This document shows positions 16,909-56,176 of a stretch of DNA of 64,000 nucleotides, in pieces. Under the pieces are notes generated by a model, which was given only the letters and a program-made list of their open reading frames with translations, was not told where the DNA came from and made no database searches. Every line of letters begins with the position of its first letter. Positions within the stretch are counted from its first letter, which is position 1. Location of the stretch: the NCBI GenBank assembly GCA_050736695.1, contig JBOHWH010000170.1:1973-65972 (forward strand), given 5' to 3'. The stretch is from Candidatus Binataceae bacterium (lineage in GTDB: Bacteria; Desulfobacterota; Binatia; Binatales; Binataceae). The translations under genes were made by a program, and so were the position numbers.

Positions 16909-17481
16909 ATGCCGCGAATTCCATTAGTCGAGCCCGAAAGCGCGCCACAAGAAATCAAAGACCTCTACGCGAAGTTTCCCGGCGGCGACGGGCAGCTCTT
17001 GAATGTAGTCAAGATGTTCGGGAACAATCGAAACTTCCTCGAAGGATTTTTGCACATCCTGAACGGTCTCTACTCAAATGCGAAACTTCCGGCGCGATAC
17101 CGCGAGCTCGCCTACCTTCGGGCCTCGCAGCTCAACTCGTGTCACTATTGAATTCCCACCCACGTGATGCTCGGTCGGAGCATCGGATTTACTCCCGAAC
17201 AAATTGCCGCGATGCCGCAGGCGGACGTCAGCCCGCTGTTCGACGAAACCGATCGCATGGTGCTGAAATACTCGGAGGTCCTGACTCGCGAAAATCGGGT
17301 GGATGACGACCTCTTCAACCGGCTGGCCGCGCGTTTCTCTCGCGAGGAGCTGGTCGAGCTCTGCTTCACGGTTGGGATGGCGGCGCTGGTGAATCGGGTT
17401 CACGCGACGTTTCGGACCGATCTCGACGCTTCCACCCGCGACATCGTCGGCGACGCGCCGTACTGTCCGATCGGGCGCTGA
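16909..17481 (+). CDS. AhpD-like / carboxymuconolactone-decarboxylase-family putative selenoprotein (in-frame UGA at 17149-17151 read as Sec; motif CHYU-IPTH)
   Basis: ORFs 16909-17151 and 17164-17481 are in the same frame; TGA sits exactly where the second Cys of the AhpD catalytic C-x-x-C-x-x-x-H motif is expected; hairpin 14 nt downstream. Confidence 0.7.
17166..17184 (+). promoter_or_regulatory. putative bacterial SECIS-like hairpin GATGCTC-GGTCG-GAGCATC
   Basis: 7-bp perfect stem, 5-nt loop, begins 14 nt after the in-frame UGA. Confidence 0.5.
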
Positions 17482-19357: not shown

Positions 19358-20302
19358 TCAAGCGGGCAGGGCGTCGTAATGCACGCCGGTCATCTGCTCG
19401 GAAACGTTCCACAGCCGGGTTGCGACGCTCTGATCCTTGGCGGCAGCGCTGCGTTTGACGCGGGTCGGATTTCCCCACATCTCGGCCAGGCCGTCGGGGC
19501 CGATATATTCTCCGCCACGCACATCCGGCGCCGCCGCGGCGTAGAGCGTCGGCAACGCGCCCATCGCGGCGCTCTGCGCGAACACCCGATTGGCAACGCC
19601 GAAGAGCGATTCCATGAGCTGCGAACCTTCCAGCCTCGGTCCCGCAGCCTGCAGGTTGGTCGCGGCGTATCCGGGATGACACGCGACCGCGATGATTTTT
19701 CCGGCGTGCGCGTCAATCCGCCGCTGGAGCTCGAGCGTGAACAGCAGATTGGCGAGTTTGCTCTGTCCGTACGCGCGCCATTTCGCGTAGCCGTGCTCCC
19801 AATTCAAATCATCGAAGCGGACCTGTCCCATCCGATGCGCTCCGCTACTGACGGTCACCACTCGCGCGTGATCGGCGGCGAGCAAAGGTTCGAGCAGGAG
19901 CCCGGTCAGTGCGAAATGCCCAAGATGATTGGTGCCGAACTGCATCTCGAAGCCGTCGGCGGTGCGTGCGTATGGGATCGCCATCACGCCCGCGTTGTTG
20001 ACAAGGATATCGAGCGCGCGATGGCGCGCGCGGTAGCTCGCAGCGAATTCGCGAATCGACGCGAGGCTCGAAAGATCAAGCGCCATTGGCTCGACGTTCG
20101 CGGCCGGGTAGGCCGCCTTGATCTGCGCCGCCGCCGCGGCCGCTTTGGTCATATTGCGGCACGCGAGGATCACGCTCGCGCCCTTGCGCGCGAACTGCAG
20201 CGCCGCCTCGTATCCGATCCCGCTATTCCCGCCGGTGACAATGATTTCCTTGCCCGAAAGATCCGGCAGATCTTGAGCGGTCCATTTCCCATTCGCAGCC
20301 AT
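19358..20302 (-). CDS. SDR-family oxidoreductase (retinol-dehydrogenase/WWOX-like)
   Basis: IIVTGGNSGIGYE cofactor motif, NNAG, S...Y-x3-K catalytic tetrad (YGQSK); SD GGGAGGA before ATG 20302. Confidence 0.85.
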   Translation of the reverse strand: MAANGKWTAQDLPDLSGKEIIVTGGNSGIGYEAALQFARKGASVILACRNMTKAAAAAAQIKAAYPAANVEPMALDLSSLASIREFAASYRARHRALDILVNNAGVMAIPYARTADGFEMQFGTNHLGHFALTGLLLEPLLAADHARVVTVSSGAHRMGQVRFDDLNWEHGYAKWRAYGQSKLANLLFTLELQRRIDAHAGKIIAVACHPGYAATNLQAAGPRLEGSQLMESLFGVANRVFAQSAAMGALPTLYAAAAPDVRGGEYIGPDGLAEMWGNPTRVKRSAAAKDQSVATRLWNVSEQMTGVHYDALPA

Positions 20303-20401
20303 CCGAAATCCTCCCGCGCGCGTCAACTACATCACAAGGCGCAGACTACGACCCCGCCGCCGTTTCCGCTACTCGGGCGAAACCAGTGCGGTGCGCGACG
20401 A

Positions 20402-21211
20402 TTACAGTTCCCAGCCGATGGTGGCTTTTACGAATTGGGCGGTTAGCGTGCCGGGAATTCCGAAACCGCCGCCGAAATTGAACTCGAGGCGCGGATCCAG
20501 GTAGAGATTGAAGCCTGGAACGATGAATTGCTGCTGATGGTTGAATCCGTGGCTATGAGTCACCGGACCGGTATCGCCGTAGTACTCGAGCGCGGGTTCG
20601 AGCCAGTTCCATTTGCCGCGCAGCCGATAGCTGATTGCGCCCTGGGGGCCGAATGAGATTCCGCCGTGGGTGCCGGGTCCGGAGAATTGCTTTTCGAAAG
20701 TCGGATTCGCGACCAGGAAAAAATGGCCCGCGTAGCCCTGCGCGATCAGCATGAACTCAACGTTCAGCGGGTCGTCAACCGCCGCGTGGCGCATGTACTG
20801 GAATTCGATATTGCCACCAAATTTTATCGGCCATGAGTCGGTCTGCGGAACGCCGAAATGCACTTTGCTTCGCGCGCCAGCATATTGGTATGTGCCGGTG
20901 CCGAGCTCGCCGGTGCATACGTACTGCCCGACCTCGAGCCACGGCAGCAATCCGTAAGTGAACTCGACCGTGTTGTGATATTGATAGATGGGCAACTCCT
21001 GTTTCGCATTGCCCTGCGCCGCCATCAGATTGTTGGTATGCAGCTCGATCATCAGATGACCCTGCGGGACAGTATTGGCGGTATACATCTGAAGCTCGTA
21101 GAAGTCCGATGCGAATGCGACCGCGCTCGGGCCACATGGCCGAATCGCGAACAAAGCGATCGCGGAAATCGCGCCGACGATTGTGCGAAGATATTTCGAT
21201 CCGGTTCTCAC
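20402..21211 (-). CDS. secreted Gly/aromatic-rich protein, possible outer-membrane beta-barrel (phenol-degradation MetA-like transporter family?)
   Basis: Signal peptide (AISAIALFA), alternating hydrophobic pattern, many G/Y/F/W; family uncertain. Confidence 0.5.
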   Translation of the reverse strand: MRTGSKYLRTIVGAISAIALFAIRPCGPSAVAFASDFYELQMYTANTVPQGHLMIELHTNNLMAAQGNAKQELPIYQYHNTVEFTYGLLPWLEVGQYVCTGELGTGTYQYAGARSKVHFGVPQTDSWPIKFGGNIEFQYMRHAAVDDPLNVEFMLIAQGYAGHFFLVANPTFEKQFSGPGTHGGISFGPQGAISYRLRGKWNWLEPALEYYGDTGPVTHSHGFNHQQQFIVPGFNLYLDPRLEFNFGGGFGIPGTLTAQFVKATIGWEL

Positions 21212-21539: not shown

Positions 21540-23528
21540 TTAATGCTGATAGGCGCCCAGATCGACCGGGTTCCTCGGACGCGGCGTCCCCATGATGTCC
21601 AGCGCCGGCACGCCGTACGCCGTCGTACCGGCACCGACGGCAGGACTGGAAGCTTGCGGGATGAAGCTGATCGCCGGATTCACCAGCATCGGATTCTTGC
21701 CGGAGATCTCGGCGGTCAGCGTATCACCCGAGCTGGAGATCGAGGTCGACGAGTTGCCGGTAGTGCCGTTGAAAGTCAGGTTGTTCGCGAACACGTTGGC
21801 CGAGCCGCCGCCGTCGAGGATTGCGGTGTTCGCACCGTTCAAGCTGGGTGCGGCAACCAGGATGTTGTTAGCCACCGCGACTCCGTTCGAGTTCTCCAGC
21901 GAGACCTCGCCGCGCCAGGTGAAGCTGTTCGTGGTTTGAGCGTAATCGTCCCAGCAGGTGTTGTTGAGAATCGTCACCGCGGTTGAATGGAACACCTTGA
22001 CGCATGCGCCCGTGTTGCCGTAGCCGACGTTGTTCTCGACCAGTATCGGCGAGCTGTAGCTGCTGTCGATACCGCTGTCCACGATGATGCCGTTGCCGTC
22101 GGTACCGCCCTGCGGATTTTCGTTCGCGTACGAGAAGTTGTTCGCAATCGTGATGTGGTAGCCCGCGGCGCCATCCGCTGCCAACGGCTCGTACACGGAG
22201 ATCCCTGAGCCTGAGCCGGTCCAGGCGCCGGCGTTGCCCGAGGTAATGTTGTTTTCGATATCGATGTAGTCGGCGTTGTTGAGCTGGATCCCGCTGGCGC
22301 TCGCGCCCGTGACTTCGTTGCCGGTCACCCTAAAATGCGCTCCTCCGTTCGACGTAACGATTCCCCACATGCCGCCGGTCACCTCGAGGTTCTCGACCGC
22401 GATGTAGGACTGCGCGTTGATGTTGACGCCCATCGCGGAGGTGCCGCTCATGCTGATGGTGGCGCCCAGAGGAGTCGAGGCGGCCAGCGTGATCCATCCG
22501 TTCGCGTTGCCCGAGTTGTTGAAGGTGACGCCCGTCGTAAAGGTGCCGCTGGCGCATACGGTGCTGCCAGGCTGGGCCGCATTAACGCCTTCCTGCAGAG
22601 TCTTGTAGGGGTGCGCTGACGACGTGCCCGGACCTGAATCGCTTCCGGCAGGCGACACGAATATCGTGCACGCAATCGCGGACGTAGGACTCGCGGTTGG
22701 TGTCGCCGTGACGGTGGGAGTCGCGGTTTTGGTAGGCGTTGCAGTCGCCGTTGGCGTCGCGGTTGTGGTGATGGTTGGCGTTGCTGTCGGCGTCGTGGTT
22801 GCGGTTACGGTGGCAGTCGCCGTTGCGTTCACGGTTGGCGTCGAAGTGGCGGTTGCGGTTAGAGTCGGAGTAGGCCTGACCGTCGCGGTGACAGTTGGCG
22901 TGATCGTCGTTGTCGCGGTCGCGGAAAATGTCGGCGTTGGAGCTTGCGTGGGAGTCGCGGTCACGGTCGGCGTGAACCCTGGGGTCGGAGTAACGGTCGG
23001 TGTCGGAGAGTGGCGCTTGCGAGGCCCGAGATTTCTGATTCTGCCGATCAGTGGTACCGAAATGATCGGATTGCTCGCATCGCTCCCAATTGTCAGCATT
23101 CCCTGATGGGTCCCCGACGGATCCGACGTGAAGCTGATCATGACAACGCATCGTGTGCCCGGCTGCAATTCTCCAACGCAGGTGTTCGACGCAACGAACT
23201 CAGCGCTCGAGGATTGGATCGTGCTGATGCTGATTGGTTTATTCTGGCGGTGATTTTTCTTGTTGATGAGGGTGACTTTTCCGGATTTGGTTTCGACGAC
23301 GGTTCCGAGCTGCATGATCTCGGTCGCCGCCGCTGCCGTGCGCGGCGTAACCTGGAGAGCCGCCGGTTCGGGGCTGGGCATCGGCAGAGCGTCCCGAGTG
23401 ATCCCGGAGGAGGGACTGCCGGGTTCATTCTGATACGCATACGACTCGGTCGCCGCTCCCAGTGCGACTATAGTCGCCACGATTCCGGCAACAACTGCGA
23501 AGAGACTTCGATTGATCGACAAAAACAT
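21540..23528 (-). CDS. secreted right-handed parallel beta-helix (pectate-lyase-fold) protein with Thr/Pro-rich linker
   Basis: Signal peptide; N-terminal beta-sandwich-like domain; ~110-aa TPTxT linker; C-terminal repeats NN(I/V)xxGN..G.G(I/V) typical of PbH1 beta-helix. Confidence 0.75.
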   Translation of the reverse strand: MFLSINRSLFAVVAGIVATIVALGAATESYAYQNEPGSPSSGITRDALPMPSPEPAALQVTPRTAAAATEIMQLGTVVETKSGKVTLINKKNHRQNKPISISTIQSSSAEFVASNTCVGELQPGTRCVVMISFTSDPSGTHQGMLTIGSDASNPIISVPLIGRIRNLGPRKRHSPTPTVTPTPGFTPTVTATPTQAPTPTFSATATTTITPTVTATVRPTPTLTATATSTPTVNATATATVTATTTPTATPTITTTATPTATATPTKTATPTVTATPTASPTSAIACTIFVSPAGSDSGPGTSSAHPYKTLQEGVNAAQPGSTVCASGTFTTGVTFNNSGNANGWITLAASTPLGATISMSGTSAMGVNINAQSYIAVENLEVTGGMWGIVTSNGGAHFRVTGNEVTGASASGIQLNNADYIDIENNITSGNAGAWTGSGSGISVYEPLAADGAAGYHITIANNFSYANENPQGGTDGNGIIVDSGIDSSYSSPILVENNVGYGNTGACVKVFHSTAVTILNNTCWDDYAQTTNSFTWRGEVSLENSNGVAVANNILVAAPSLNGANTAILDGGGSANVFANNLTFNGTTGNSSTSISSSGDTLTAEISGKNPMLVNPAISFIPQASSPAVGAGTTAYGVPALDIMGTPRPRNPVDLGAYQH
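22676..23006 (-). repeat. low-complexity coding repeat (TPT/TAT linker) inside beta-helix protein gene
   Basis: Degenerate tandem repeats at DNA level (GGCGTCGCGGTTG / GGTGGCGGTTG variants). Confidence 0.6.
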
Positions 23529-29930: not shown

Positions 29931-31217
29931 ATGGATACCAATTCGAGCCTGTGGGTGCGGATGCAATCGGCGGTAGCCAGAGGCGTCAGCGTGTCGTTGC
30001 CGGTCTTCGCCGCCAGCGCCGAAAATGCGGAAATCCGCGATGTCGAAGGGCGCCGCTATATCGATTTCGCCGGAGGAATCGCCGTCCTCGGCGTCGGCCA
30101 TCGCCATCCCCGCGTGATGGCCGCGGCCGAGGCTCAGCTCCGCGCGCTCACCCACGCGTGCTTCCAGGTCACTCCGTACGAATCGTACGTGCGCCTGGCA
30201 GAGCGGCTGAACGAGCTCGCGCCCGGGGCGAGTCCGAAGAAAACCATTTTTCTCACCACCGGTGCCGAAGCGATCGAGAACGCGGTCAAGATCGCGCGTT
30301 ACGCGACCGGGCGGCCCGGCGTGATCGCATTCGATGGTGCGTTTCACGGACGCACGCTGATGGCGCTGGGGCTGACCGGCAAGATGATTCCCTACAAAGC
30401 GGGCTTCGGGCCGTTTCCCGCCGATGTTTATCACGCGCCATTCCCGGACGAGTTCCACGGCGGAAGTACTGCCGAGTCGATCAAGGCGATCGAGGTGATT
30501 TTTCATTCGTCGATCGAGCCGGCGCGGGTCGCCGCGATTATCATCGAGCCTGTGCAGGGCGAGGGCGGCTTTAACGTCGCCCCGGCGGAGTTCCTGCGCG
30601 TGCTGCGCCGCCTGTGCGATCGGCACGGAATAAAGCTCATCGCCGATGAGGTGCAGACCGGCTTTGGCCGCACCGGACGGATGTTTGCGGTCGAGCATTC
30701 CGGGGTCGCGCCGGATTTGATCGCGATGGCGAAGAGCCTCGGCGGAGGATTCCCGCTTTCCGCCGTGACCGGCGCCGCCGATTTGATGGATAGCGTGGCG
30801 CCGGGCGGCCTGGGCGGCACCTACGCCGGAAATCCGGTCGCCTGCGCGGCGGCGCTCGCGGTGCTCGACGTGATTCGTGAGGAAGATATTCTCGCGCGCG
30901 CGGGGAAACTTGGGACGATGGTTCGGGCGCGGCTGCACAACATGCAACACGACGCGCGGTTCGATTGTATCGGCGACGTGCGCGGAGCCGGCGCGATGCT
31001 GGCGTTCGAGCTGGTCAAGGATCGCGCGACGCTCGAGCCCGCACCCGAGCTGACTCGCCGTCTGGTCCTGCGCGCCGCCGAGCGCGGCCTGATAATTTTG
31101 TCGTGCGGCATTCACGCCAACGTGATTCGCATCCTCGCGCCGCTGACCGCGCCACTGGAACAGGTGGACGAAGGCATGAGCATCCTGGAGGCATCGTTAA
31201 CCGACGTGATCGGGTAA
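29931..31217 (+). CDS. gabT: class-III PLP aminotransferase (4-aminobutyrate aminotransferase-like)
   Basis: GabT-like layout: GRTGRMFAVEHSGVAPDLIAMAKSLGGGFP (PLP-Lys region), DEVQTGFGRTG. Confidence 0.8.
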   Translation: MDTNSSLWVRMQSAVARGVSVSLPVFAASAENAEIRDVEGRRYIDFAGGIAVLGVGHRHPRVMAAAEAQLRALTHACFQVTPYESYVRLAERLNELAPGASPKKTIFLTTGAEAIENAVKIARYATGRPGVIAFDGAFHGRTLMALGLTGKMIPYKAGFGPFPADVYHAPFPDEFHGGSTAESIKAIEVIFHSSIEPARVAAIIIEPVQGEGGFNVAPAEFLRVLRRLCDRHGIKLIADEVQTGFGRTGRMFAVEHSGVAPDLIAMAKSLGGGFPLSAVTGAADLMDSVAPGGLGGTYAGNPVACAAALAVLDVIREEDILARAGKLGTMVRARLHNMQHDARFDCIGDVRGAGAMLAFELVKDRATLEPAPELTRRLVLRAAERGLIILSCGIHANVIRILAPLTAPLEQVDEGMSILEASLTDVIG

Positions 31218-31408: not shown

Positions 31409-32311
31409 ATGAGTGAGCATCGAAGGCTTCCTGACTTTATCGCGGTGGGCCCGCAACGCACCGGCACGACTTGGCTGCATCAGGTGCTGGCAGGCCGCGT
31501 CGGCCTGCCGGAAACCAAGGAAACCGATTTCTTTTTGAAAAATTTCGACCGCGGCCTCGATTGGTACCTGGCGTTTTTCGACGCGTGTCCAAGCGGGGCG
31601 CCGATCGGCGAAATCGACCCCAACTATTTCGGCGCAGCGGCCGCGCGCGAGCGGATTGCCGCGATGCTGCCGCGGTGCAGGGTTATCGTTTCGCTGCGCG
31701 ACCCGACCGAGCGCGCATGGTCGTCGTATCGTACGATGCGCCGCGACGCGTGGACGCGCATCGGTTTCGAGGCGACAGTCATGCGCAATGAGATCATCCG
31801 CGAATCGAGCCGCTACGCGTTCCATCTGGCCAATTGGCAGCGCGACTTCGGCGCGGATCGCGTGATGGTCTGCCTCTATGATGATCTCGAAGCCGATCCG
31901 CAGGCGTATCTTGATCGGATCTGCGAGTTTATCGGCGCGCCGCCGATCACGGTTCGCGGCACCCCTGGCGCGACCGAGCGCGTCAACACGGTCACCGAGG
32001 CTCCGCGCAACCGCAAGCTCGCGCAAAGCGCGCGCGATGCGCGCGACTGGCTCGCGATGCATCGGTGGCATCGCACGGGCCGCGCGCTCGGACGGCTCGG
32101 GCTGTGGCGCTTCGCGTTTGCCGGCGGTGAGGAGTTTGGCGCGATGGATCGCGCCGCCGAAGCGCGCCTGCGCGAATATTTTCTTCCCGAGATCGAAGAG
32201 CTCGAAGTGCTGATTGGCCGCGACCTGGACTCATGGAAGCGTCCACACGCGCGCGAAACTGTGGCCGCGGGTCAGGCAGGCTATGCCAATGCGAGCGGTG
32301 CGGGAGCGTAG
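31409..32311 (+). CDS. PAPS-dependent sulfotransferase 1
   Basis: 5'-PSB motif GPQRTGTTWL and 3'-PB motif RDPTERAWSSY. Confidence 0.8.
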   Translation: MSEHRRLPDFIAVGPQRTGTTWLHQVLAGRVGLPETKETDFFLKNFDRGLDWYLAFFDACPSGAPIGEIDPNYFGAAAARERIAAMLPRCRVIVSLRDPTERAWSSYRTMRRDAWTRIGFEATVMRNEIIRESSRYAFHLANWQRDFGADRVMVCLYDDLEADPQAYLDRICEFIGAPPITVRGTPGATERVNTVTEAPRNRKLAQSARDARDWLAMHRWHRTGRALGRLGLWRFAFAGGEEFGAMDRAAEARLREYFLPEIEELEVLIGRDLDSWKRPHARETVAAGQAGYANASGAGA

Positions 32312-33277
32312 ATGCGGGTGGCGCGCGTGTCGATAATTATTCCGGCGTACAACGCCGCCCATACGATCGGGCAGGCGCTGGAAAGCGCGCTCGCGCAGAC
32401 CTTTAGCGATTGTGAAATTATAGTCGTCGATGACGGTTCGACGGACGCGCTGGAATCGGCGCTGGCGCCATATCGCGATCGGATCAGTCTTATCCGGCGG
32501 AGAAATCGCGGAATCGCCGCCGCGAGGAACGCCGGAGTCGCCGGCGCCGGTGGCGAGTACCTGGCATTTCTGGACGCGGACGACATCTGGATGCCGGAGC
32601 GGATCGAGAAAACGGTTTCGGTGCTCGATTCCGATCCGCGATGCGTGCTGGCTTTTGGCGGCGCTCTGACCATCGATTCGGACGGAACCCATACCGGCGA
32701 GTATTCGATAGAGCCGGATTCCAATCTCAATCCCGGCCTGGCCGAAATCGTTTCGGGCCGGGCGCCGCTCAAGGCGAGCTCGATTCTGATGCGGCGTGCG
32801 ATCTTCGAGCGCGTGGGCGGCTTCGATGAGGCTGCGTTCGGTCGCACCGCCGGCGGCGCGGCGCCGTATCTCTATGCGCTCGCGAGCGAGCACGGCACTA
32901 TTCGAATCGTTGCGGAACCGCTGATGAAATATCGCGTCGTGCCGACCCGCAACCGAATGTGGAAATATGAGGCGGGGCGCCGCATCCTGGTGCGAAAATG
33001 GCGCGCCCGTTACGGCAGGAAAATTCGCCCCGCGCTCAGAATACAAATCAAGGCGTGGGTCCGTGAGTGGAATCAACTCGGCATCAACGCGATTGAACGA
33101 GTTAATCTCAAGGTTGCCCGTTCCGCGTTTCGCGCCGCGTTGCGTTTGGAACCGTGGAACCGGCAGGTAAGGGCGCATCTTCTGCGAACCTATCTTCCGG
33201 CGCGGATGGTGGCGCGGATGTCCGAGCGCCGCACCGCGCGCAAACGCGTTCAGCGCGCGGCGCGGACGAAGACGTGA
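32312..33277 (+). CDS. GT2-family glycosyltransferase 1
   Basis: SIIIPAYNAAHTIGQALESALAQT...VVDDGSTD...FLDADDIW (GT-A DxD); starts 1 nt after ST1 stop. Confidence 0.85.
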   Translation: MRVARVSIIIPAYNAAHTIGQALESALAQTFSDCEIIVVDDGSTDALESALAPYRDRISLIRRRNRGIAAARNAGVAGAGGEYLAFLDADDIWMPERIEKTVSVLDSDPRCVLAFGGALTIDSDGTHTGEYSIEPDSNLNPGLAEIVSGRAPLKASSILMRRAIFERVGGFDEAAFGRTAGGAAPYLYALASEHGTIRIVAEPLMKYRVVPTRNRMWKYEAGRRILVRKWRARYGRKIRPALRIQIKAWVREWNQLGINAIERVNLKVARSAFRAALRLEPWNRQVRAHLLRTYLPARMVARMSERRTARKRVQRAARTKT

Positions 33278-34152
33278 ACGCAAGCGCGGCCGCGAAGCTG
33301 CCGGATTTTATCGCGGTCGGACCGGGACGCACCGCGACCACATGGCTGCACGAGAAGCTCAAAGGCCGCGTCGATCTTCCCGCGGGCATCAAGGAAACCG
33401 ATTTTTTTACGACCAACTACGCCCGGGGCATCGATTGGTACGCGCGCCATTTTCGCTCCGCCTCGGGCGCGCGGCCGATTGGCGAAGTGAATCCATATTT
33501 CGGATTCCCCGAAGCCGCCGAACGTATTGCGCGCCATATTCCGCGGTGCAAAATCATCTGCACATTTCGAAATCCGGTCGAGCGAATTTATTCGTCGTAC
33601 AAACTTTGGCGCCATTACACCCAGACCAGCCTGCCCATAGACGAATTTCTGGTTAAAGTGCCGCAGATTATCGAGGTCACGCGCTACGCCAAACATCTGC
33701 CCGATTGGCAATCGCGTTTCGGCGCCGAACGCGTGCTGGTCCTGTTAAACGACGACCTGCGCGCCGACCCGCGGGAGTTTTTGGATTGCGTCTGCGATTT
33801 TATCGGAATCGCGCGATATCCGGTTCCCTCGGCTGGAGCCGGAGCGGAAATGATCAACTCGATCGACGATCTGCCGCGCTATCCGGGCGTCGCGCGCCGC
33901 GCGCGCCATATGATGTACTGGCTGGAGGAGCGGCAGGCGTACGCGCTGTTGAATTTGCTGGAACGCGCGGGAGTCTGGCGCTGGACCTTCGGCGGCGGCG
34001 AGAAGTTCGGTCCGATCGATCCGAAGATCGATGCTCATCTGCGCGAAATGTTTCTGCCGGAAATCGAGGCGCTGGAGAAAATGATCGGACGCGATCTGTC
34101 GGCGTGGAAAACTCCCGCGGACGCCGCGCCGCCGCGCGAACCCGTCCGCTGA
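33274..34152 (+). CDS. PAPS-dependent sulfotransferase 2
   Basis: GPGRTATTWL, FRNPVERIYSSY; GTG start overlaps GT2-1 stop (GTGA). Confidence 0.8.
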   Translation: MNASAAAKLPDFIAVGPGRTATTWLHEKLKGRVDLPAGIKETDFFTTNYARGIDWYARHFRSASGARPIGEVNPYFGFPEAAERIARHIPRCKIICTFRNPVERIYSSYKLWRHYTQTSLPIDEFLVKVPQIIEVTRYAKHLPDWQSRFGAERVLVLLNDDLRADPREFLDCVCDFIGIARYPVPSAGAGAEMINSIDDLPRYPGVARRARHMMYWLEERQAYALLNLLERAGVWRWTFGGGEKFGPIDPKIDAHLREMFLPEIEALEKMIGRDLSAWKTPADAAPPREPVR

Positions 34153-34160
34153 CGTTCGCG

Positions 34161-35054
34161 ATGCCGCAAGCCTCGGTCATAATTCCTATGTACAACAGCG
34201 CGGCCACAGCTGCGCGCGCGATCGAGAGCGCGCTCGCGCAGACGATCGGCGAGCTCGAAGTCGTGTGCGTCGATGACGGCTCGAAGGACGCTTCGGCGCG
34301 GCTCGCGCGGGGCTATGACGATCGCGTGCGCGTGATTGTCCAGAGCAATCGCGGTCCCTCGGCGGCGCGCAATGCGGGCGCGCGAGCCTCAAGCGGCGAG
34401 CTGATCGCGTTCCTCGACGCCGACGATATCCTGCGCCCGACGATGCTTGCGCGATGCGCCGATGAGCTGCGGGCGAATCGCGAAGCTGTGCTTGCGTACA
34501 CCGACGCCGAGATTATCGACGCATCGTCCGGCATCCTGCGCACCTCGATCGCCGGGGCGGGCCGCGCGCATGCGCCGGCGATGGAGGATCTGCTCGCGCG
34601 CCTGTGGCCGATCGTTCCCAGCACGGCGGTTATGCGCCGCTCGGCGTTCGACGCGGCGGGCCGATGGTGCGAGGCGCTGCGCTCGTGCGAGGACGTTTAT
34701 TTCTGGCTGCTCATGCGCGAACGCGGCCCGTTTTGCTATATCGCGGACCCGCTGGCCGCGAAGACGGAGGATCAACTCTTTCCCAAGGTGCTCGAACGCG
34801 ACATCGGCGCGCGCGAGTTTGCCCGCCGCGTGCGCGAACGTTATGGCGCCCGCGCCGGCGGATTGCTGCGCGACTTCCGGCGGATGAAGGCGCGTCTGCT
34901 CGAGCGTTGCGGCGCGGAAGCGATGCGCGCTGGACATTCGCGCGACGCGCGGCGATGCTTTGCGCACGCAATCGCTTATCAACCGGCGCGGATGCGCAAC
35001 TACGTGAGCATGCTCAAAAGTTTTGCGGCCTCGGACGCCGGCGCGCGCAAGTGA
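34161..35054 (+). CDS. GT2-family glycosyltransferase 2
   Basis: SVIIPMYNSAATAARAIESALAQT...CVDDGS...FLDADDIL. Confidence 0.85.
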   Translation: MPQASVIIPMYNSAATAARAIESALAQTIGELEVVCVDDGSKDASARLARGYDDRVRVIVQSNRGPSAARNAGARASSGELIAFLDADDILRPTMLARCADELRANREAVLAYTDAEIIDASSGILRTSIAGAGRAHAPAMEDLLARLWPIVPSTAVMRRSAFDAAGRWCEALRSCEDVYFWLLMRERGPFCYIADPLAAKTEDQLFPKVLERDIGAREFARRVRERYGARAGGLLRDFRRMKARLLERCGAEAMRAGHSRDARRCFAHAIAYQPARMRNYVSMLKSFAASDAGARK

Positions 35055-35998
35055 GTAACGCGACTTGCCCGCCACGGGTGTCGGTGGTCGTGCCGGTTTA
35101 CAACGGCGCCGCGACGATCGCGGCCGCGCTCGACAGTATCCTTGGGCAGTCCTTTACCGATTTCGAGATCGTCGCGATCGACGACGGCTCGACCGACGAT
35201 TCGATCAAGGTGCTCGAGCGCTATGCTCCGCGCGTCCGCGTGCTGACTCAGAAAAACTCAGGGCCGTCGGCGGCGCGCAATCTTGGCGTCCGCAATTCAT
35301 CCGGCCAGTATCTTGCCTTTCTCGACGCCGACGACATGTGGCGTACCGGGTTTCTCGAACGCACGGTCGCGGCCCTCGATAAAGAGCCGGCGAGTGTCCT
35401 CGTCTATACCGATCTCGAACTCGCCGACAGCACCGGCGTCGCGATGGGCGCGTATCTGATCGGAAAGCGCGGCGTGCCTACCGTGCAAGACATGCTCGAG
35501 CGGATGTGGCCGATCCTGCCAAGCTCGGTGATGATGCGTCGCGACGCGTTCGAGCGCGCGGGTGGATTTCCGGAAGAGTTGACCAGTTTCGAGGACGTGT
35601 ATTTCTGGCTGCTCGCGCGCGAGCAGGGGAGCTTCAGCTATATCGATGAGCCGCTGGTGATGTGGCGCTTTGCGCTGTTTCCGGCGCCGCTCAAACCCGC
35701 GGGCGGGCAGGAGGCGGCAGGGCGGATCTTCGATCGGATGCTCCAGCGGCGCTATGGGGTGCGCGGGCTTGCGCATGTCGCCGCGCGCCGGCGCGCTCCG
35801 CGCAGCATCCTTGGCTATATCGGACTGCATGCGCTGAGAAGCGGCAACCAACTGGCCGCGCGGCGCGCATTTGCCGCGGCGCTAAGGACCGATCCCTGGC
35901 GGCTCAAAAGTTACTTGCGTTATGCCCGAACGTTCTTGCCGCCTACGATCGCGCGCACGCTTTCCAGCCGCCGCACGGACGAGCCGGATCGGCGATGA
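35051..35998 (+). CDS. GT2-family glycosyltransferase 3
   Basis: SVVVPVYNGAATIAAALDSILGQS...AIDDGSTDDS...FLDADDMW; GTG start overlaps previous stop (GTGA). Confidence 0.85.
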   Translation: MSNATCPPRVSVVVPVYNGAATIAAALDSILGQSFTDFEIVAIDDGSTDDSIKVLERYAPRVRVLTQKNSGPSAARNLGVRNSSGQYLAFLDADDMWRTGFLERTVAALDKEPASVLVYTDLELADSTGVAMGAYLIGKRGVPTVQDMLERMWPILPSSVMMRRDAFERAGGFPEELTSFEDVYFWLLAREQGSFSYIDEPLVMWRFALFPAPLKPAGGQEAAGRIFDRMLQRRYGVRGLAHVAARRRAPRSILGYIGLHALRSGNQLAARRAFAAALRTDPWRLKSYLRYARTFLPPTIARTLSSRRTDEPDRR

Positions 35999-36071
35999 CA
36001 GCTTGGCACTGCGCCTGCGAGTTGTTAGCGTCGCGCCCGATGGAAAAGGAATACGAGCGCGCTATTTCGCG

Positions 36072-36977
36072 ATGAGCCCGCCTGATCCACGGCGGCTGCC
36101 GAATTTTATCGGCGTCGGACCGCCGCGCACCGCGACCACCTGGCTCTACGAGGTCATGCGGGGACACGCGGGATTTTCAGATTTCCGCAAGGAGACCGAC
36201 TTCTTCACGCGCTACTACGATCGTGGCTTCGATTGGTACCTCCAATACTTTGCAGGGTGCGGGGCTGACCTGCCGATGGGAGAGATGTCGCCGCTGTACT
36301 TCGCCTCCGACGATGCGCGCGAGCGAATCAGCCTTGCGATTCCGCAGTGCAAAATCGTCTGCTCGTTTCGCGATCCGGTTGATCGCGCGTGGTCGCATTG
36401 GCGGCTGATGGTGCGCAATCTATGGACCAAGCTCGAATTCGAGCCTGCTGCCGGCGGCATCCGCGATATCCGCGAGTCCAGCCGCTACGGCCATTACACG
36501 GCCAAATGGATCGAAAGCTTCGGCCGGGAAAACGTTCTGCTGATGTTCTATGAAGATCTGGAGCGCGACCCGCAAGCGTTTGTCGATAAAGTCTGCGCGT
36601 TTATCGGCGCGCCGCTATTTCCGCTGAGCGATTCTCCAGCCGCGCAAACCCGGGTTCATACCGTCCCGGCGCGTCCGCGCCATCGCCGGATCGCGCGCAA
36701 CCTTCGCGATATCAGGGATTGGCTGAATGATCGCCGAATGCATCGCGCGGCGAGGATTGTCCGGCAAAGTTCGCTGTGGAGCTACTGCTTCGAGGGCGGC
36801 CAGCCATTCAAGCGTCCGTCGGCAGAGGTTGATGCGCGAATTCGCGCGGCGATGAGGCCGGAGGTCGAGGCGCTCGAGGCAATCAGCGGACGCGACTTAT
36901 CGGCATGGAAGACGGGCAGGGCGCGCGTCGAAACTCAAACGCAAAGCGCCGGCGAAGTTTCCTCCGCCGGCGCCTGA
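36072..36977 (+). CDS. PAPS-dependent sulfotransferase 3
   Basis: GPPRTATTWL, FRDPVDRAWSHW. Confidence 0.8.
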   Translation: MSPPDPRRLPNFIGVGPPRTATTWLYEVMRGHAGFSDFRKETDFFTRYYDRGFDWYLQYFAGCGADLPMGEMSPLYFASDDARERISLAIPQCKIVCSFRDPVDRAWSHWRLMVRNLWTKLEFEPAAGGIRDIRESSRYGHYTAKWIESFGRENVLLMFYEDLERDPQAFVDKVCAFIGAPLFPLSDSPAAQTRVHTVPARPRHRRIARNLRDIRDWLNDRRMHRAARIVRQSSLWSYCFEGGQPFKRPSAEVDARIRAAMRPEVEALEAISGRDLSAWKTGRARVETQTQSAGEVSSAGA

Positions 36978-36997
36978 TTTCAATATAAAACCCGGCT

Positions 36998-38188
36998 TCA
37001 GGCCGAGCGCGCGGCCTTGCGCAGGTTTCGATAGGCGCGCCCCTCGCCCATTCCGTACCGATTCAGCATCCGGTAAACCGTGTAGCGCGAAACCCCGAGC
37101 AGCTCGGCGGCGCGATGACAATTGCCGTTGGCCGCCTCGAGCGCACGCATCAGGGCGATTTTCGACGCCTCACGGATTACTTCGTCGAGCGCGTAAGGCC
37201 ATGCCTGCTTGTCCGGCCTCTCGATCGGCGCGGGTGCGCTCTCCATCACCTCGGCCAACGGCGCGCGGGAGCCGATCGGCGGACCTGATTCATCGGGGAT
37301 GGCGCCTTCATAAACATGATCGGGTAAATCTTCGGCAATCAGCCGGTTGGATTCGGCCAGAATAACGGCGCTTTCGATCGCGTGAGCAAGCTCACGCACG
37401 TTGCCCGGCCATGGATACGCCATCAAGGCGTCGAGCGCGCGCCGCTCGATATGCGTGATCGCTTTGCCGAACAGATGGTTGTAATGCTCGATAAAATGCG
37501 CGACGAAGGCCCCGACCGCCTCGCGCCGCTCGCGCAGCGGCGGCAGCAGGACCGCGGCGGTGTTGAGGCGGTAATACAGGTCGTCGCGAAACTCGCCGCT
37601 CTTGGTCATCGCGCGCAGATCGCGATTGGTCGCGGCGACCAGGCGGATATCAACTTTATAACTATGGGTGGATCCGACCGGCTGGATTTCGTGCGTCTCG
37701 ACCGCGCGCAACAGCTTGGGCTGGAGCTTCAACGGCAGTTCGCCGATCTCGTCTAGGAACAGGGTGCCGCCGCTGGCCGATCGGAAATAGCCAAGCGCGT
37801 CCTCGCGCGCGTCGGTGAACGCGCCCTTCACGTGTCCAAACAGTTGCGATTCGGCCAGCGAATCGACCAGGTTGGAGCAATTGAAGGTGACGAAGGGGCC
37901 GTTTGGCGTAGGTCCCAGCGTATGCAGCGCTCGGGCGACTAATTCTTTTCCGGTGCCCGATTCGCCGTGGATCAGCACGGTAGCCTTGTATGGGCTAAGC
38001 CGGGCGATCGTTTTAAGAACCTTGCGAACCTGCGCCGACCGCACCACCATTCCGCCGATTCGTTCGGAGCCTTGCGCCAGCCCGTCAAGGCTGATGCAAT
38101 CGGAGCAGTTCGCTCCGGACTCGGTGCCATGATCGTGGGTCGAACCAATCTTCGCGGTGTCCGCCGCCGTGTCTCCGCTCTGACGCAT
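36998..38188 (-). CDS. sigma-54-dependent transcriptional activator (bEBP) lacking N-terminal sensory/receiver domain (PspF/HrpS-like)
   Basis: AAA+ sigma-54 interaction domain (GESGTGKE, GAFTDA, ESQLFGH, GNVREL) plus C-terminal Fis-type HTH; only ~45 aa precede the AAA+ core. Confidence 0.9.
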   Translation of the reverse strand: MRQSGDTAADTAKIGSTHDHGTESGANCSDCISLDGLAQGSERIGGMVVRSAQVRKVLKTIARLSPYKATVLIHGESGTGKELVARALHTLGPTPNGPFVTFNCSNLVDSLAESQLFGHVKGAFTDAREDALGYFRSASGGTLFLDEIGELPLKLQPKLLRAVETHEIQPVGSTHSYKVDIRLVAATNRDLRAMTKSGEFRDDLYYRLNTAAVLLPPLRERREAVGAFVAHFIEHYNHLFGKAITHIERRALDALMAYPWPGNVRELAHAIESAVILAESNRLIAEDLPDHVYEGAIPDESGPPIGSRAPLAEVMESAPAPIERPDKQAWPYALDEVIREASKIALMRALEAANGNCHRAAELLGVSRYTVYRMLNRYGMGEGRAYRNLRKAARSA

Positions 38189-38345: not shown

Positions 38346-38361
38346 TGGCACTGCCGTCGCA
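38346..38361 (+). promoter_or_regulatory. sigma-54 promoter candidate TGGCAC-TGCCG-TCGCA (orphan; reads antisense into acyl-CoA dehydrogenase gene)
   Basis: 10/11 match to TGGCAC-N5-TTGCA with invariant GG/GC. Confidence 0.45.
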
Positions 38362-41720: not shown

Positions 41721-42974
41721 ATGGATACCGATACTCCCGCGAGCAAACTGCAGAACCCCACGCTCGCTCCCGGACCTTCGATCCGCACTCGCAAGGTGCT
41801 GGCGGGGGTGCAGTGGTGGGTGTGGCTGGCGGGCTTTTCGATTCTGGCGATCGTCGCCTACCTGATGCTCTCGCGGCCCAGTGGCGGAGCGGCAGGACCG
41901 GCAGGCGCGAATGCGAATGCGGGTCGCGCGATGGCGCTGGTGCCGGTTACGGCAATCACTGCGAAGACCGGAGATTTGAACCACTACCTGACCGCGATTG
42001 GCTCGGTCACCGCGTTCAATACCGTCACGCTGATGTCTCGCGTGCCCGGCGAGATCATGAAAGTAACTTTCGCCGAAGGACAGAGCGTGAAGGCGGGCGA
42101 CCTGTTGGTCGAGATCGATCCGCGGCCGTATCAAATTCAGCTCGAGCAGGCCGAAGGAACTCTGGCCAAGGATCAGGCTTCGCTCACCGACAACAAAATC
42201 CTGCTCGCGCGCGACGAAGAGCTGTTCAAGGAAGCGGTGATTGCGCGCCAGGATCTGGACAATCAGCGCGCAACCGAGGCTCAGTTCGAGGGCTCGATTA
42301 TCAGCGATCAGGCCGCGGTCGATAGCGCGAAGCTCCAACTCACTTACAGCAGAATCACCGCGCCGATCAGCGGAAAGATTGGGCTCAGGCTGGTCGATCC
42401 GGGAAACATCGTCGCGATCAACCAGGGACTGATCGTAATCACGCAAGTGCAACCAATATCGGTGCGCTTCAGCATTCCGGAAGACGATCTTCCGCTCGTC
42501 ATCAACGACATGAAGACCAGTCCAAATCTTCCGGTCGAGGCTTGGGATCGCGATTTCAAGACCAAGCTCGCCGACGGCACGCTGCTCACGCTGAACAACA
42601 CGATCGATCAAACCACAGGCACGATCATTCTGAAAGCGGAGTTTCAGAACCTCGATAATCTGCTGTTTCCGAATCAATTCGTAAACGCGCGCCTGCTGGT
42701 CGGCGTCACCAAAGACGCGGTATTGATTCCGGCAGCGGCGGTGCAACGCGGCAACGCGCGCGGTTCGTATGTATTCGTCGTCCAGCCCGGCAAGATCGCA
42801 CAAAAGCGGATCGTGACGATCGGCGCGACTGAGGGCGATACGGTCGCGGTTGCGGCCGGACTCGAATCCGGAGAGGTCGTTGTGACCGACGGCGTTGACA
42901 AGCTGCGCAACGGCTCGCGCGTTGCGGTCCAGATGGCCGCGAATATCGCCTCCACCGGCGGCGGCCGGCAATGA
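41721..42974 (+). CDS. RND efflux periplasmic adaptor (membrane fusion protein, MdtA/AcrA-like)
   Basis: N-terminal TM anchor, coiled-coil hairpin, lipoyl/beta-barrel domains ([13 protein letters not shown]). Confidence 0.85.
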
Positions 42975-45900
42975 ATCCGTCCCGGCCGTTTATTCTGCGG
43001 CCGATCGCAACCTCGCTGCTGATGGCGGGGCTGATGCTCGCCGGCATATTTGCCTACAGGCAGTTGCCGGTCTCCGCGCTGCCGGAAGTCGATTATCCTA
43101 CGATCCAGGTTGTGACCTTCTACCCCGGCGCCAGCCCCGACGTGATGGCGTCTTCGGTCACCGCGCCGCTGGAGCGCCAATTCGGGCAGGTTCCCGGACT
43201 TAACCAAATGACCTCGAACAGTTCGTTCGGGAGCTCGGTTATCACCCTGCAGTTCGTCCTCGATCTGGATATCGATGTGGCCGAGCAAGAGGTGCAGGCC
43301 GCGATCAATGCCGCCTCGACCTATCTGCCGGCCGACTTGCCCAATCCTCCGATTTACAGCAAGACCAATCCCGCCGACGCGCCGATCCTGACCATGGCGT
43401 TGACCTCGACCGAGCTCCCGCTCGATCAGGTGGAAGATCTCGCCGACACGCGCCTTGCGGAGCGCATCTCGCAGCTCTCCGGGGTTGGCCTGGTAAGTAT
43501 CAGCGGCGGACAGAAGCCCTCGGTGCGTGTCGATGCGAACCCTACGGCGCTGGCCTCATACGGACTCAACCTGGAGAGCCTGCGCGTCGCTATCGCGGCG
43601 GCGAATGTGGACGAGGCCAAGGGCAACTTCGACGGCCCGGGGCAGGCGTACACGATTGGCGCCAACGATCAGCTTCTGACTGCGAAAGACTACGGCCCGT
43701 TGATTGTCGCCTATCACAACGGCGCGCCGGTCCGGCTCTCGGATGTCGCCCGGGTCAGCGCCGGGGCTGAGAACGTCAAGGAAGCCGCGTGGATGAATCT
43801 CACGCCGGCCGTAATCATGAACGTTCAGCGCCAGCCCGGCGCCAATATTATCGAGGTCGTCGATCGGATCAAAAAGCTGATGCCGCAGCTTAAAGCCGGG
43901 CTGCCATCGTCGGTCAACGTATCGATTCTGACTGACCGCACAACCACCATCCGCGCCTCGGTCGCCGACGTGCAGTTCGAGTTGATGCTGACGGTGGCGC
44001 TGGTCGTGATGGTCATCTTCCTGTTCCTGCGCAATATCGCAGCCACCGTGATTCCGAGTATCGCGGTGCCGCTTTCGATCGTCGGCACGTTTGGCGTGAT
44101 GTATCTGCTGGGTTACAGCCTCAACAACCTGACCCTGATGGCGCTGACGATCTCGACCGGGTTCGTGGTCGATGACGCGATCGTCATGATCGAGAACATC
44201 TCGCGCTTTATCGAGGAAGGGCAGCCGCCGCTGCAGGCGGCGTTAAACGGCTCCAAGCAAATCGGGTTCACGATCGTGTCGTTGACCGTCTCGCTAATCG
44301 CGGTGCTGATTCCGCTCTTGTTCATGGGCGATATAGTCGGGCGCCTGTTTCGCGAATTCGCGATCACGCTGGCGGTAACGATCCTGGTCTCCGCGGCCGT
44401 GTCGCTGACCCTGACGCCGATGATGTGCGCGCGGCTTTTGCGGCACAAGCCGAAAGCCCGGCAGAACCGCCTCTACCGCAAGTCGGAGCAAATCTTCGAG
44501 GATACGATCGCGTTCTACGGCAAAACGCTCACCTGGGTGCTGCGCCATGAACAGGCGACGCTGGCGGTGGCGATCGCGACGCTTATCCTCACGATCGTTT
44601 TGTACATCGTCGCACCCAAAGGATTTTTTCCGGTGCAGGACACCGGCGTAATCGAAGGCGTGTCCGAGGCGCCTCAGACCATCTCGTTTCCCGCGATGGC
44701 GGCGCGGCAGCAGGAACTCGCCAAGGTGATTCTCGGCAATCCCAGCGTGCAGAGCCTGTCGTCGTTTGTCGGAATTGACGGGACCAACACTACCGTCAAC
44801 AGCGGACGCTTTCTGATAAACCTCAAGCCGCAGGACGAACGCGACGCAACGATCACGCAGGTTATCGCGGGTCTGCAAAACGCAACCGCGCAGATTCATG
44901 GAATCGATTTGTACCTGCAGCCGGTGCAGGACTTGACCGTCGAAGATCGCGTCAGCCGCACCGAGTATCAGTACAGCCTCGAGGATCCGAATCCCGCCGA
45001 ATTAAGCGATTGGACCGCGCGCCTGATGGCGAAGCTCAAGGCGATGCCTCAATTGCGCGACCTCGCAACCGACCAGCAGAACCATGGGCTCGAAGCCGAC
45101 ATTACAATCGACCGCAACACCGCCTCGCGCCTCGGAATTGGACTGCAATCGATCGATGCCAGCCTCTACGACGCGTACGGCCAGCGGCAAGTCTCGACCA
45201 TCTTTACCCAGCTCAACCAGTACCACGTGGTGCTGGAGGTGGCGCCGGAGTTCCAGCAGGATCCGGCCGCGCTCGACGACCTGTATTTTGCCGCAACCGG
45301 CGGTGGCGAAGTTCCGCTGAGCACCTTCGGCAAGATCACGAAAACCACGACTCCGCTGGTGGTGAATCACGAGGGCCAGTTTCCGGCGGTGACGATTTCT
45401 TTCGATGTGGGCCAGGGATACTCGCTCGGTGACGCGGTCAACGCGATCAAGCGGGCCGAGGCCGACATCGGGATGCCGGCCAGCATCCAGGCCGCCTTCC
45501 AGGGAACCGCGCAGGCGTTTCAGGCCTCGCTGGCGAACGAGCCGATCCTGATCCTGGCGGCGCTGATCACGGTCTATATCGTGCTCGGCGTTTTGTACGA
45601 GAGCTACATCCATCCGATCACGATTCTTTCGACGCTGCCGTCGGCGGGAGTCGGCGCGATTCTGGCGCTGCTCATCTGCCGCGAAGATCTGGACGTGATC
45701 GCGCTTATCGGCATCATTCTGCTCATAGGTATCGTCAAAAAAAACGCGATCATGATGATCGACTTCGCGCTCGAGGCGCAGCGCAAGGACGGCAAGTCGC
45801 CGCGCGAGGCGATCTATCAGGCCTGCCTGTTGCGCTTCCGGCCGATCATGATGACCACGATGGCGGCGCTGCTCGGCGGACTCCCGCTCGCGCTCGGCAC

Positions 45901-46095
45901 CGGCACCGGCTCGGAGCTGCGCCGTCCGCTCGGGATCACGATCGTCGGAGGCCTGCTGCTCAGCCAGTTGCTGACGCTGTACACAACGCCGGTAATCTTT
46001 CTTGCCTTCGAGCGTCTGGCGGAACGCTTCGCCGGCGCGCCGTCACCCGTGCCGGTTAAGGACGCGGTGCCCGGGTCGGCGGGAGCGCAGGCTTC

Positions 46096-46099
<4 letters not shown>
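42971..46099 (+). CDS. RND (HAE1) efflux transporter permease, MdtB-like
   Basis: 1042 aa, 12 TM plus two large periplasmic loops; ATGA overlap with adaptor gene. Confidence 0.9.
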
Positions 46100-49206
<3,107 letters not shown>

Positions 49207-51446: not shown

Positions 51447-51462
51447 TGGCATGACCTCTGCA
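51447..51462 (+). promoter_or_regulatory. sigma-54 promoter candidate TGGCAT-GACCT-CTGCA ~90 nt upstream of flp
   Basis: -24 TGGCAT and -12 CTGCA with canonical GG-N10-GC spacing. Confidence 0.55.
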
Positions 51463-54934: not shown

Positions 54935-54954
54935 CCGCCGCTTATGAGGATCTC

Positions 54955-56166: not shown

Positions 56167-56176
56167 GGTTTTAATC

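Follow-up and report, generated by a model that had tools for sequence, protein, structure and literature searches.

What does a soil bacterium make with three sulfotransferases and three glycosyltransferases encoded side by side? The question is raised by a 64,000-nucleotide stretch of DNA (the window; contig JBOHWH010000170.1, positions 1,973 to 65,972 of the forward strand) from the metagenome-assembled genome (MAG) GCA_050736695.1 of a Candidatus Binataceae bacterium, an uncultured soil organism. At positions 31409-36977, six tightly packed open reading frames (ORFs) on the + strand encode sulfotransferases (ST) and family 2 glycosyltransferases (GT) in the order ST1-GT1-ST2-GT2-GT3-ST3. 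We consider it fairly probable that these soluble cytoplasmic enzymes extend and sulfate a lipid-linked surface glycan whose core machinery is encoded elsewhere, and that the array is a strain-variable glycan island. The six genes would be co-transcribed as a cytoplasmic set for glycan tailoring. The family 2 enzymes would add sugars from nucleotide sugars, with GT2 and GT3 appearing active and GT1 doubtful, and the three STs, of the heparan sulfate (HS) type, would move sulfate from 3'-phosphoadenosine-5'-phosphosulfate (PAPS) to hydroxyl or amino groups of the sugars.

A compact array of soluble enzymes

The six genes, whose position and families had been given in an initial annotation of this DNA, were confirmed by the ORFs and by Pfam:

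31409-32311 (+): ST1, 300 amino acids (aa); Pfam Sulfotransfer_3 and Sulfotransfer_1
32312-33277 (+): GT1, 321 aa; Glycos_transf_2, E 1e-35; xED motif lost
33274-34152 (+): ST2, 292 aa; Pfam Sulfotransfer_1/Sulfotransfer_3; motifs kept; GTG start
34161-35054 (+): GT2, 297 aa; Glycos_transf_2, E 9e-34; DDGS, DADD and CED motifs
35051-35998 (+): GT3, 315 aa; Glycos_transf_2; the GT class most widely conserved in Binatia arrays
36072-36977 (+): ST3, 301 aa; Pfam Sulfotransfer_1/Sulfotransfer_3; the usual array neighbour of the activator gene

Read from the DNA, ST1 and GT1 meet at TAGATG with a gap of 0 nt, rather than the 1 nt previously assigned. The other junctions stood as described, with a GTGA overlap that sets the GTG start of ST2 over the stop of GT1, a gap of 8 nt between ST2 and GT2, a second GTGA overlap between GT2 and GT3, and a gap of 73 nt between GT3 and ST3. 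The stop codon of ST3 lies 20 nt from that of a convergent sigma-54 activator gene. Start/stop overlaps of adjacent genes are common in other arrays as well; they are consistent with co-translation in an operon and do not show stoichiometric modules. The description of the locus as a compact operon of intact PAPS-type STs and family 2 GTs is supported.

Hydrophobic segments were checked in all six proteins and none contains a transmembrane segment. Pairwise identity is 40-48% among the STs and 31-42% among the GTs. Proteins identical to those of the array were found in the Candidatus Binataceae MAG GCA_975255925.1 and in one Logan assembly, and the homologues come nearly all from Binatia MAGs or soil metagenomes. 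A search of the ~10 kb to the left and to the right, and of the large ORFs scanned in the window, found no gene for Wzx, Wzy, a priming transferase or a glycan ABC exporter, in agreement with the initial annotation, which had noted no export or priming genes in the unit.

The sulfotransferases resemble those of heparan sulfate

ST1, ST2 and ST3 all match Pfam Sulfotransfer_1 and Sulfotransfer_3 (E 2e-13 to 2e-20) and share one order of motifs, GPxRT[GA]TTW followed by KETDFF and then R-[DN]-P...S, at positions that are invariant or nearly so in 25 ST homologues. The 5'-phosphosulfate binding (5'-PSB) loop reads GPQRTGTTW in ST1, GPGRTATTW in ST2 and GPPRTATTW in ST3. Within it, Arg17 is invariant in the 25 homologues and aligns with the PSB lysine of NDST1 and of 3-OST-3 (K162). 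The basic residue is therefore arginine rather than lysine in the array, a variant also found in NodH and in TPST. Glu38 in KETDFF aligns with the catalytic glutamate of 3-OST-3 ('GAEPHFF') and of NDST1 ('EEIQFF'), and the 3'-phosphate binding (3'-PB) segment R97-[DN]-P99...S105, invariant in the three STs and the 25 homologues, aligns with VRDPVTRAIS of 3-OST-3. The initial annotation had made its assignment hang on an intact PAPS site; checked by alignment, the 5'-PSB, the 3'-PB and the catalytic glutamate are kept in all three proteins.

A profile built from the three STs and searched against the Protein Data Bank (PDB) retrieved 3rnl first, followed by the sulfotransferase domain of NDST1 and 3-OST-3 (E ~1e-22); 3-OST-3, -1 and -5 spanned E 1e-22 to 1e-15 and the cytosolic SULTs scored far more weakly. 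The AlphaFold2 (AF2) model of ST1 (pLDDT 90) gave the same picture, with 3rnl, 3-OST-3 and NDST1 as the top Foldseek matches and TM-scores of 0.61-0.66 to 3-OST-1/3/5 and NDST1, against ~0.33-0.45 to TPST and SULT. From the motif alignments (R17, E38, R97...S105) and the fold of the ST1 model, we judge the three proteins to be intact sulfotransferases of the carbohydrate (HS) type, predicted to belong to an NDST/3-OST-like clade. An exhaustive search recovered 209 clusters of this subfamily at E <= 1e-30. The subfamily includes natural fusion proteins of the arrangements GT2-ST, ST-GT2, GT4-ST and ST-GT4 (GT2 and GT4 here denoting families) and ST-FkbM-methyltransferase, and the fusions with GT domains support a functional coupling of ST and GT. 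A multiply sulfated glycan, as proposed in the initial annotation, is the likely product.

The likeness to HS enzymes allows a more specific proposal, which we put forward tentatively. In Binatia, an uncultured phylum that is abundant in soil, the homologues of HS sulfotransferases may set a strain-specific pattern of multiple sulfates on lipooligosaccharide or on a glycosaminoglycan-like surface glycan, each ST paralogue having its own position and N-sulfation possibly being included.

Two of the three glycosyltransferases keep a full set of catalytic motifs

All three GTs match Glycos_transf_2 (E ~1e-34), and the DDGS and DADD motifs are invariant across them. The xED motif is CED in GT2 and FED in GT3. 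In GT1 its place is taken by GGAA (in 'GGAAPY'), so that only two of the three enzymes carry the full catalytic set. Orthologues of GT1 read GGED, GGEG or GQD at this position, some having lost one of the two residues, and the GT1 gene is missing altogether from one otherwise syntenic locus (L012). Since GGAA replaces the GGED of orthologues and the gene is absent from L012, GT1 may be inactive, and its class appears to be decaying. This bears on the three ST/GT modules of the initial annotation, one of which would contain a GT that lacks the ED catalytic motif.

GT3, whose orthologues are 55-84% identical, was modelled by AF2 (pLDDT 88) as a GT-A fold with a C-terminal helical bundle; the Foldseek matches of this model include 6p61, the K4 chondroitin polymerase, CgT and TarS. 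As a group, the GTs are closest to family 2 enzymes that build glycans (a Leptospira GT, the K4 chondroitin polymerase, CgT, WrtF and TarS), with no specific assignment. An attempt to read specificity from the solved structures was abandoned, as the matches are generic family 2 catalytic domains.

Array content varies at a fixed chromosomal site

Is the alternation of STs and GTs a conserved design? Across 185,579 species genomes a scan recovered 71 loci, and the STs, the GTs and the genes around them were mapped in these. The site of the array in Binatia is fixed, with DUF1329, PhyH, two ChrA genes, a gene for a 293-aa protein of unknown family and an aminotransferase gene leading into the array and the convergent sigma-54 activator gene closing it. 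Between the same flanking genes, 29 arrays showed 14 different orders of ST (S) and GT (G) genes, among them S, SGS, GSGS, SSG, SSGGS, SSSGGG', SSSSSG and SSSSSGGS. The number of STs in these bounded arrays ranges from 1 to 6 (mean 3.0) and that of GTs from 0 to 4 (mean 2.3), with 1 to 9 genes in all, and some Binatia arrays carry extra genes for a family 4 GT, a methyltransferase or an NAD-epimerase. The exact order of the window, SGSGGS, was seen in its closest relatives only (L007, L008, L010, L011 and L013). The repeated module with one ST per GT that the initial annotation had described is thus not a conserved design, and to see an alternating module here is to read too much into a single allele of a hypervariable ST/GT island.

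Nor do the identities among the paralogues fit such modules. The annotation had suggested a check for module duplication, and here the identity patterns of STs and GTs disagree: the closest STs are ST1 and ST2 (48%), yet the closest GTs are GT2 and GT3 (42%), which leaves a simple duplication of ST-GT pairs unsupported and led us to reject it. Orthologues 60-88% identical to each of the window's paralogues occur in other genomes, which makes the paralogues old. The block in the window would be one allele of a strain-variable glycan island at a fixed site in the Binatia chromosome, and differences in ST and GT content would lead to different sulfated surface structures.

Genomic contexts of relatives point to a probable lipid-anchored acceptor

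The array itself offers little indication of what is modified, and we therefore turn to the contexts of its relatives. In three MAGs of lower G+C labelled Acidobacteriota (L064, L069 and L075), STs 43-48% identical to those of the window lie with family 2 GTs in Wzx/Wzy clusters, their neighbours being Wzx (Polysacc_synt), Wzy_C, a polysaccharide deacetylase, methyltransferases and a FemAB/GNAT acetyltransferase. These clusters represent a classical pathway with a lipid-linked repeat unit. With a deacetylase encoded beside the homologous STs, an NDST-like N-deacetylation followed by N-sulfation is conceivable.

Binatia also have a second ST/GT locus, which adjoins secA-argJ-Rieske. In five of eight cases its order is ST-(ST)-GT-[ABC half-transporter]-GT-ST-ST:

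About 9900-17000 in each of L039, L040, L042, L045 and L048: second-type loci with an MsbA-like half-transporter

On the MsbA lipid-A exporter model this transporter reaches 566-569 bits, below the cutoff of 602, and on PglK only 188 bits, and the L048 locus also contains an ArnT-like PMT_2 protein. The initial annotation had argued that the lack of Wzx/Wzy might speak against a polysaccharide; the Acidobacteriota clusters and the MsbA-like exporter of the second locus weaken that argument. At the first-type site, locus L046 retains a single ST, of the ST3 type, beside the activator gene, which implies that its acceptor is made elsewhere, and in L003 the array is followed by an epimerase gene and a PfkB+SIS fusion gene, which may resemble those of the ADP-heptose pathway. 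No priming, flippase or polymerase gene was seen within ~10 kb in any first-type Binatia locus examined. In one Binatia lineage (L005), a squalene-hopene cyclase gene at 5402-7432 (-) lies just upstream of the unit of aminotransferase, array and activator.

We favour a lipid-anchored glycan as acceptor because of the Wzx/Wzy contexts, the MsbA-like gene of the second locus, the fusion proteins, the lone ST of L046 and the genes in L003. From these we infer an acceptor at the inner face of the cytoplasmic membrane and a product that would reach the cell surface. Candidate acceptors would be lipid A-core/lipooligosaccharide (the core of lipopolysaccharide (LPS), or LOS) or an undecaprenyl-linked unit of O-antigen or extracellular polysaccharide (EPS), and other parts of the genome would supply the genes for priming, flipping, polymerisation and export.

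Several observations weigh against this proposal. The link to surface glycans comes from the contexts of homologues that are only 43-50% identical. Among the window ORFs scanned, no gene for an acceptor, a flippase, a priming transferase or PAPS synthesis was found. The MsbA-like gene is present in only five of the eight second-type loci and may be a housekeeping MsbA that lies there by chance. The resemblance of the GTs to known family 2 enzymes is generic and says nothing of sugar or acceptor, and part of the block may be decaying, given the ED motif lost from GT1. Finally, there is no report of a sulfated glycan from Binatia, and this organism is an uncultured one.

Comparison with known systems

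The system nearest in function is the synechan (xss) cluster of Synechocystis sp. PCC 6803, which unites 2 STs, 8 GTs, Wzx, Wzy, a polysaccharide copolymerase (PCP) and a priming GT with the regulators XssQ/R/S (Maeda et al. 2021, PMC8205485). As in the array, PAPS-type STs and GTs stand side by side and a transcription activator is adjacent, and the Xss enzymes have been proposed to act on a lipid-linked unit at the cytoplasmic face (PMC8205485). The array differs in its content of three STs and three GTs, with relatives reaching 6 STs, in having no genes for polymerisation or export and in the sigma-54 activator as its neighbour; Wzx, Wzy, PCP and priming GT genes of the xss type were found neither near the six genes nor in the first-type Binatia loci.

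By both sequence and structure, the best characterised matches of the STs are the animal HS sulfotransferases (the NDST1 domain, 1nst, and 3-OST-1, -3 and -5). They share the 5'-PSB, the 3'-PB, the position of the catalytic glutamate and a homologous C-terminal segment with the array STs, yet the identity is only 20-24% and the PSB residue is arginine in the array and lysine in the animal enzymes. The Binatia proteins are also soluble and have neither a Golgi stem nor a deacetylase domain. The top match overall is 3RNL, an Alicyclobacillus acidocaldarius ST from structural genomics (sequence E 1e-26 over the full length; fold TM-score 0.66/0.80), which keeps the PSB lysine, unlike the array STs, and is uncharacterised, so that it gives no clue to function.

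Among Gram-negative bacteria, the rhizobial enzymes LpsS (Sinorhizobium meliloti) and NodH offer the nearest functional precedent for sulfated LPS, with PAPS-dependent sulfation of a glycan that is either lipid-anchored at the surface or secreted. LpsS is annotated as a member of the Stf0 family, whereas the Binatia STs have no Stf0-type Pfam match at E <= 0.01, and the rhizobial STs are single genes, unlike the ST/GT arrays of Binatia. The Nod-factor system, in which a NodC-type membrane chitooligosaccharide synthase and a NodIJ exporter accompany the ST, is not matched by the array: the NodC model gave 30-37 bits on GT2 and GT3 (cutoff 550) and GT1 was not listed, the GTs have no transmembrane segment, and no NCBIfam model matched the array STs.

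In its layout the array recalls the LOS classes of Campylobacter jejuni and O-antigen loci, where conserved flanks likewise enclose strain-specific sets of GT and tailoring genes. Unlike the array, those hypervariable loci rarely contain STs and usually include or adjoin genes for the core or the flippase. The polymerases KfoC (E. coli K4 chondroitin polymerase, 2z86) and PmHS2 (Pasteurella heparosan synthase, 8vh7) are among the best solved-structure matches of the GTs, with 111 bits to the A2 domain of the K4 enzyme and a TM-score of ~0.63. Both are two-domain polymerases, and the likeness is generic, since the Leptospira GT, CgT and SpsA score similarly.

Flanking genes and possible regulation

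The genes on either side of the array and the sequences of its largest internal gap raise the question of how expression might be controlled. The features concerned are:

29931-31217 (+): class-III aminotransferase (GabT-like), left neighbour of the array; Pfam Aminotran_3, E 4e-128
36004-36018 (+): sigma-54-like -24/-12 sequence TGGCACTGCGCCTGC in the GT3/ST3 gap, one mismatch to TGGCAC-N5-TTGC
36017-36042 (+): conserved intergenic motif GCGAGTTGTTAGC(G/T)TCGCGCCCGATG in the GT3/ST3 spacer, upstream of ST3
36990-37008 (-): terminator-like hairpin at the 3' end of the activator gene
36998-38188 (-): sigma-54 enhancer-binding protein, 396 aa; Sigma54_activat, AAA_lid_14 and HTH_8; convergent with ST3

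The aminotransferase gene precedes the array in most Binatia loci, including the different genomic context of L005, at a distance that varies from ~15 nt to >1 kb. The protein scores 585 bits on the GABA transaminase model TIGR00700 (cutoff 507). We rejected a role as a sugar aminotransferase, given this score above the GabT equivalog cutoff and the irregular distance between the gene and the array. Its membership in the system is uncertain and we treat it as a conserved neighbour.

The activator gene follows the array in convergent orientation in ~38 loci, usually within 125 nt and most often beside an ST3-type gene. It stays beside the array where the aminotransferase gene is missing (L012, L022, L034 and L054), and the trio of aminotransferase, array and activator recurs in L005. 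Pfam detected no receiver, GAF or PAS domain in the protein. The description of a domainless activator convergent directly downstream therefore held, but the conserved sigma-54 promoter that would accompany it was not found. The only good -24/-12 match, TGGCACTGCGCCTGC, is specific to the genome of the window, since the closest orthologous loci do not have it in the corresponding gap, and across ~70 loci sigma-54-like sites were not enriched, relative to random segments, upstream of the aminotransferase gene, the first array gene or the activator gene. Sigma-54 control of the array is thus unproven, and any role of the activator in it is putative. The activator was also compared with PrsR, the EPS regulator of PEP-CTERM/exosortase systems (TIGR02915), and this identity was rejected: it reaches 302 bits where the cutoff is 503, aligns with no more than model positions 133-382 and lacks the receiver domain.

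The conserved spacer motif, which can also be written GCGAGTTGTTAGCTTCGCGCCCGATG, occurs once per locus. It aligns in the window and in L007, L008, L010, L011, L012 and L051, and was noted in L013 and L055 as well, and the orthologues have a second copy of TTGTTAG ~20 nt before it. It could be an internal promoter or a regulator-binding site. A structured RNA in this spacer was rejected, with no Rfam match and a weak hairpin of -4.5 kcal/mol. Between the activator gene and the neighbouring acyl-CoA dehydrogenase gene, a further sigma-54-like sequence with one mismatch, TGGCACTGCCGTCGC, lies at 38346-38360 (+), with no evident + strand gene downstream.

A second sigma-54 activator without a sensor domain is encoded in the same window at 60754-62049 (+), after a Tad/Flp pilus locus. 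It is 73% identical to the activator beside the array over 357 aa and the HTH regions of the two are near-identical, so pili and the surface glycan may be co-regulated. The Tad locus (51993-59480) encodes RcpC/CpaB, a secretin, a CpaE-like ATPase, CpaF and TadB/C, and is headed by a small Flp-type pilin ORF (~51552-51730, +) that contains KGQTMTEYVLIIAAIAV. About 90 nt upstream of this ORF is another sigma-54-like -24/-12 sequence, TGGCATGACCTCTGCA (51447-51462, +), in an intergenic region of low G+C (0.56).

Alternative explanations

Could the six enzymes act on something other than a lipid-anchored surface glycan? They might instead make or decorate a small molecule, such as a sulfated glycolipid, a hopanoid or carotenoid glycoside or a sulfated oligosaccharide solute, for which machinery of the Wzx/Wzy type is unneeded. 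Trehalose sulfation by mycobacterial Stf0 and the sulfated Nod factors are precedents for acceptors that are not polymers, and the solubility of all six proteins, the lack of priming, flippase and polymerase genes within ~10 kb in first-type Binatia loci and the squalene-hopene cyclase gene near the array in L005 would all fit. However, that hopanoid neighbour belongs to one lineage only, the STs fall in the NDST/3-OST clade that acts on polysaccharides rather than with Stf0 or the small-molecule SULTs, and relatives lie in Wzx/Wzy clusters and beside an MsbA-like exporter. Arrays of up to 6 STs also fit a small solute poorly, and we consider a small-molecule product unlikely. A protein target seems less probable still. 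An S-layer protein, the Flp pilin or a secreted beta-helix protein could be glycosylated and sulfated directly or by way of a lipid carrier, as the sulfated N-glycans of archaeal S-layers are assembled on a lipid carrier, and the window offers two candidates for such a connection: the Tad/Flp pilus locus adjoins the gene for the activator paralogue of 73% identity, and a secreted beta-helix protein of the 'choice-of-anchor' kind is encoded 8 kb upstream. Yet the pilus locus is ~15 kb away and not syntenic with the array in other loci, and neither an oligosaccharyltransferase (PglB, PglL or AglB type) nor a target protein is consistently linked to the array in other genomes.

A different question is whether the flanking genes belong with the array at all. 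The aminotransferase and the activator may be an ancestral pair for amine catabolism, and the ST and GT genes unrelated cargo in a recombination hot spot. The aminotransferase scores above the GabT equivalog cutoff and lies anywhere from 15 nt to >1 kb from the array, array content ranges from 1 to 9 genes between the same flanks, and there is no excess of sigma-54-like promoters upstream of array, aminotransferase or activator. Against this, the activator remains next to the array in the four loci without the aminotransferase, and the whole trio recurs in the different context of L005. We regard this separation of flanks and cargo as possible, if somewhat doubtful. It bears on the flanks only and is compatible with our explanation of the six genes as enzymes that would extend and sulfate a lipid-linked surface glycan.

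Novelty and significance

The array falls within the known biology of sulfated-glycan biosynthesis, and is set apart by a high ST content, by enzymes of the HS type, by the absence of export genes and by a wide occurrence in an uncultured soil phylum. The initial annotation did not recognise the layout from characterised systems, and the literature that we searched likewise contained no description of an ST/GT array of this kind and nothing combining Binatota with sulfotransferase; the main Binatota genome paper is silent on LPS and EPS. Sulfated bacterial glycans are regarded as rare, and were described in the synechan study as not reported outside cyanobacteria (PMC8205485). Prokaryotic sulfotransferases and pathways of the glycosaminoglycan (GAG) type are called unknown or poorly known in two papers, one of which, a study of granular sludge, calls the bacterial pathways for sulfated GAG-like polymers 'not well known' and the known reference enzymes perhaps the wrong ones. 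Against this background the locus provides a compact candidate set of three intact HS-type STs with partner family 2 GTs, suited to heterologous expression, in a widespread soil phylum that keeps a variable array of 1-6 STs in one fixed place on the chromosome. A sulfated surface glycan, if that is the product, would bear on soil aggregation, metal binding and recognition by phages or predators, and the enzymes would be new STs for making sulfated oligosaccharides. Should the HS-like patterning prove true, the array would represent a prokaryotic sulfation system of the glycosaminoglycan type. Chemical analyses have detected sulfated GAG-like polymers in environmental biofilms, and the array would then also be a genetic origin for these.

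Other features of the window

The window is ordinary chromosome. Its left part contains ftsA/ftsZ, PEPCK, an MFS transporter, a DUF1329 protein, PhyH and a split chromate transporter, followed by the GabT-like aminotransferase. To the right of the array and its activator come an AidB-like acyl-CoA dehydrogenase, a TetR gene with an RND pump, the Tad/Flp pilus locus and the second short sigma-54 activator. We looked for a signature of horizontal transfer and rejected it, as the G+C of the block (0.63-0.66) resembles that of its surroundings. The RND pump (41721-49206) was considered as an exporter and likewise rejected; it is paired with the TetR gene, and no RND gene was present in the annotated 10-kb flanks of four other Binatia genomes.

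Three further observations concern the left part of the window. A gene at 21540-23528 (-) encodes a protein of 662 aa with weak beta-helix and 'choice-of-anchor D/Q' matches, which is probably a secreted surface protein. The ORFs that adjoin it at 19379-21211 have no family match. Two DUF455 paralogues lie in tandem at 6209-6976 (-) and 7072-7872 (-).

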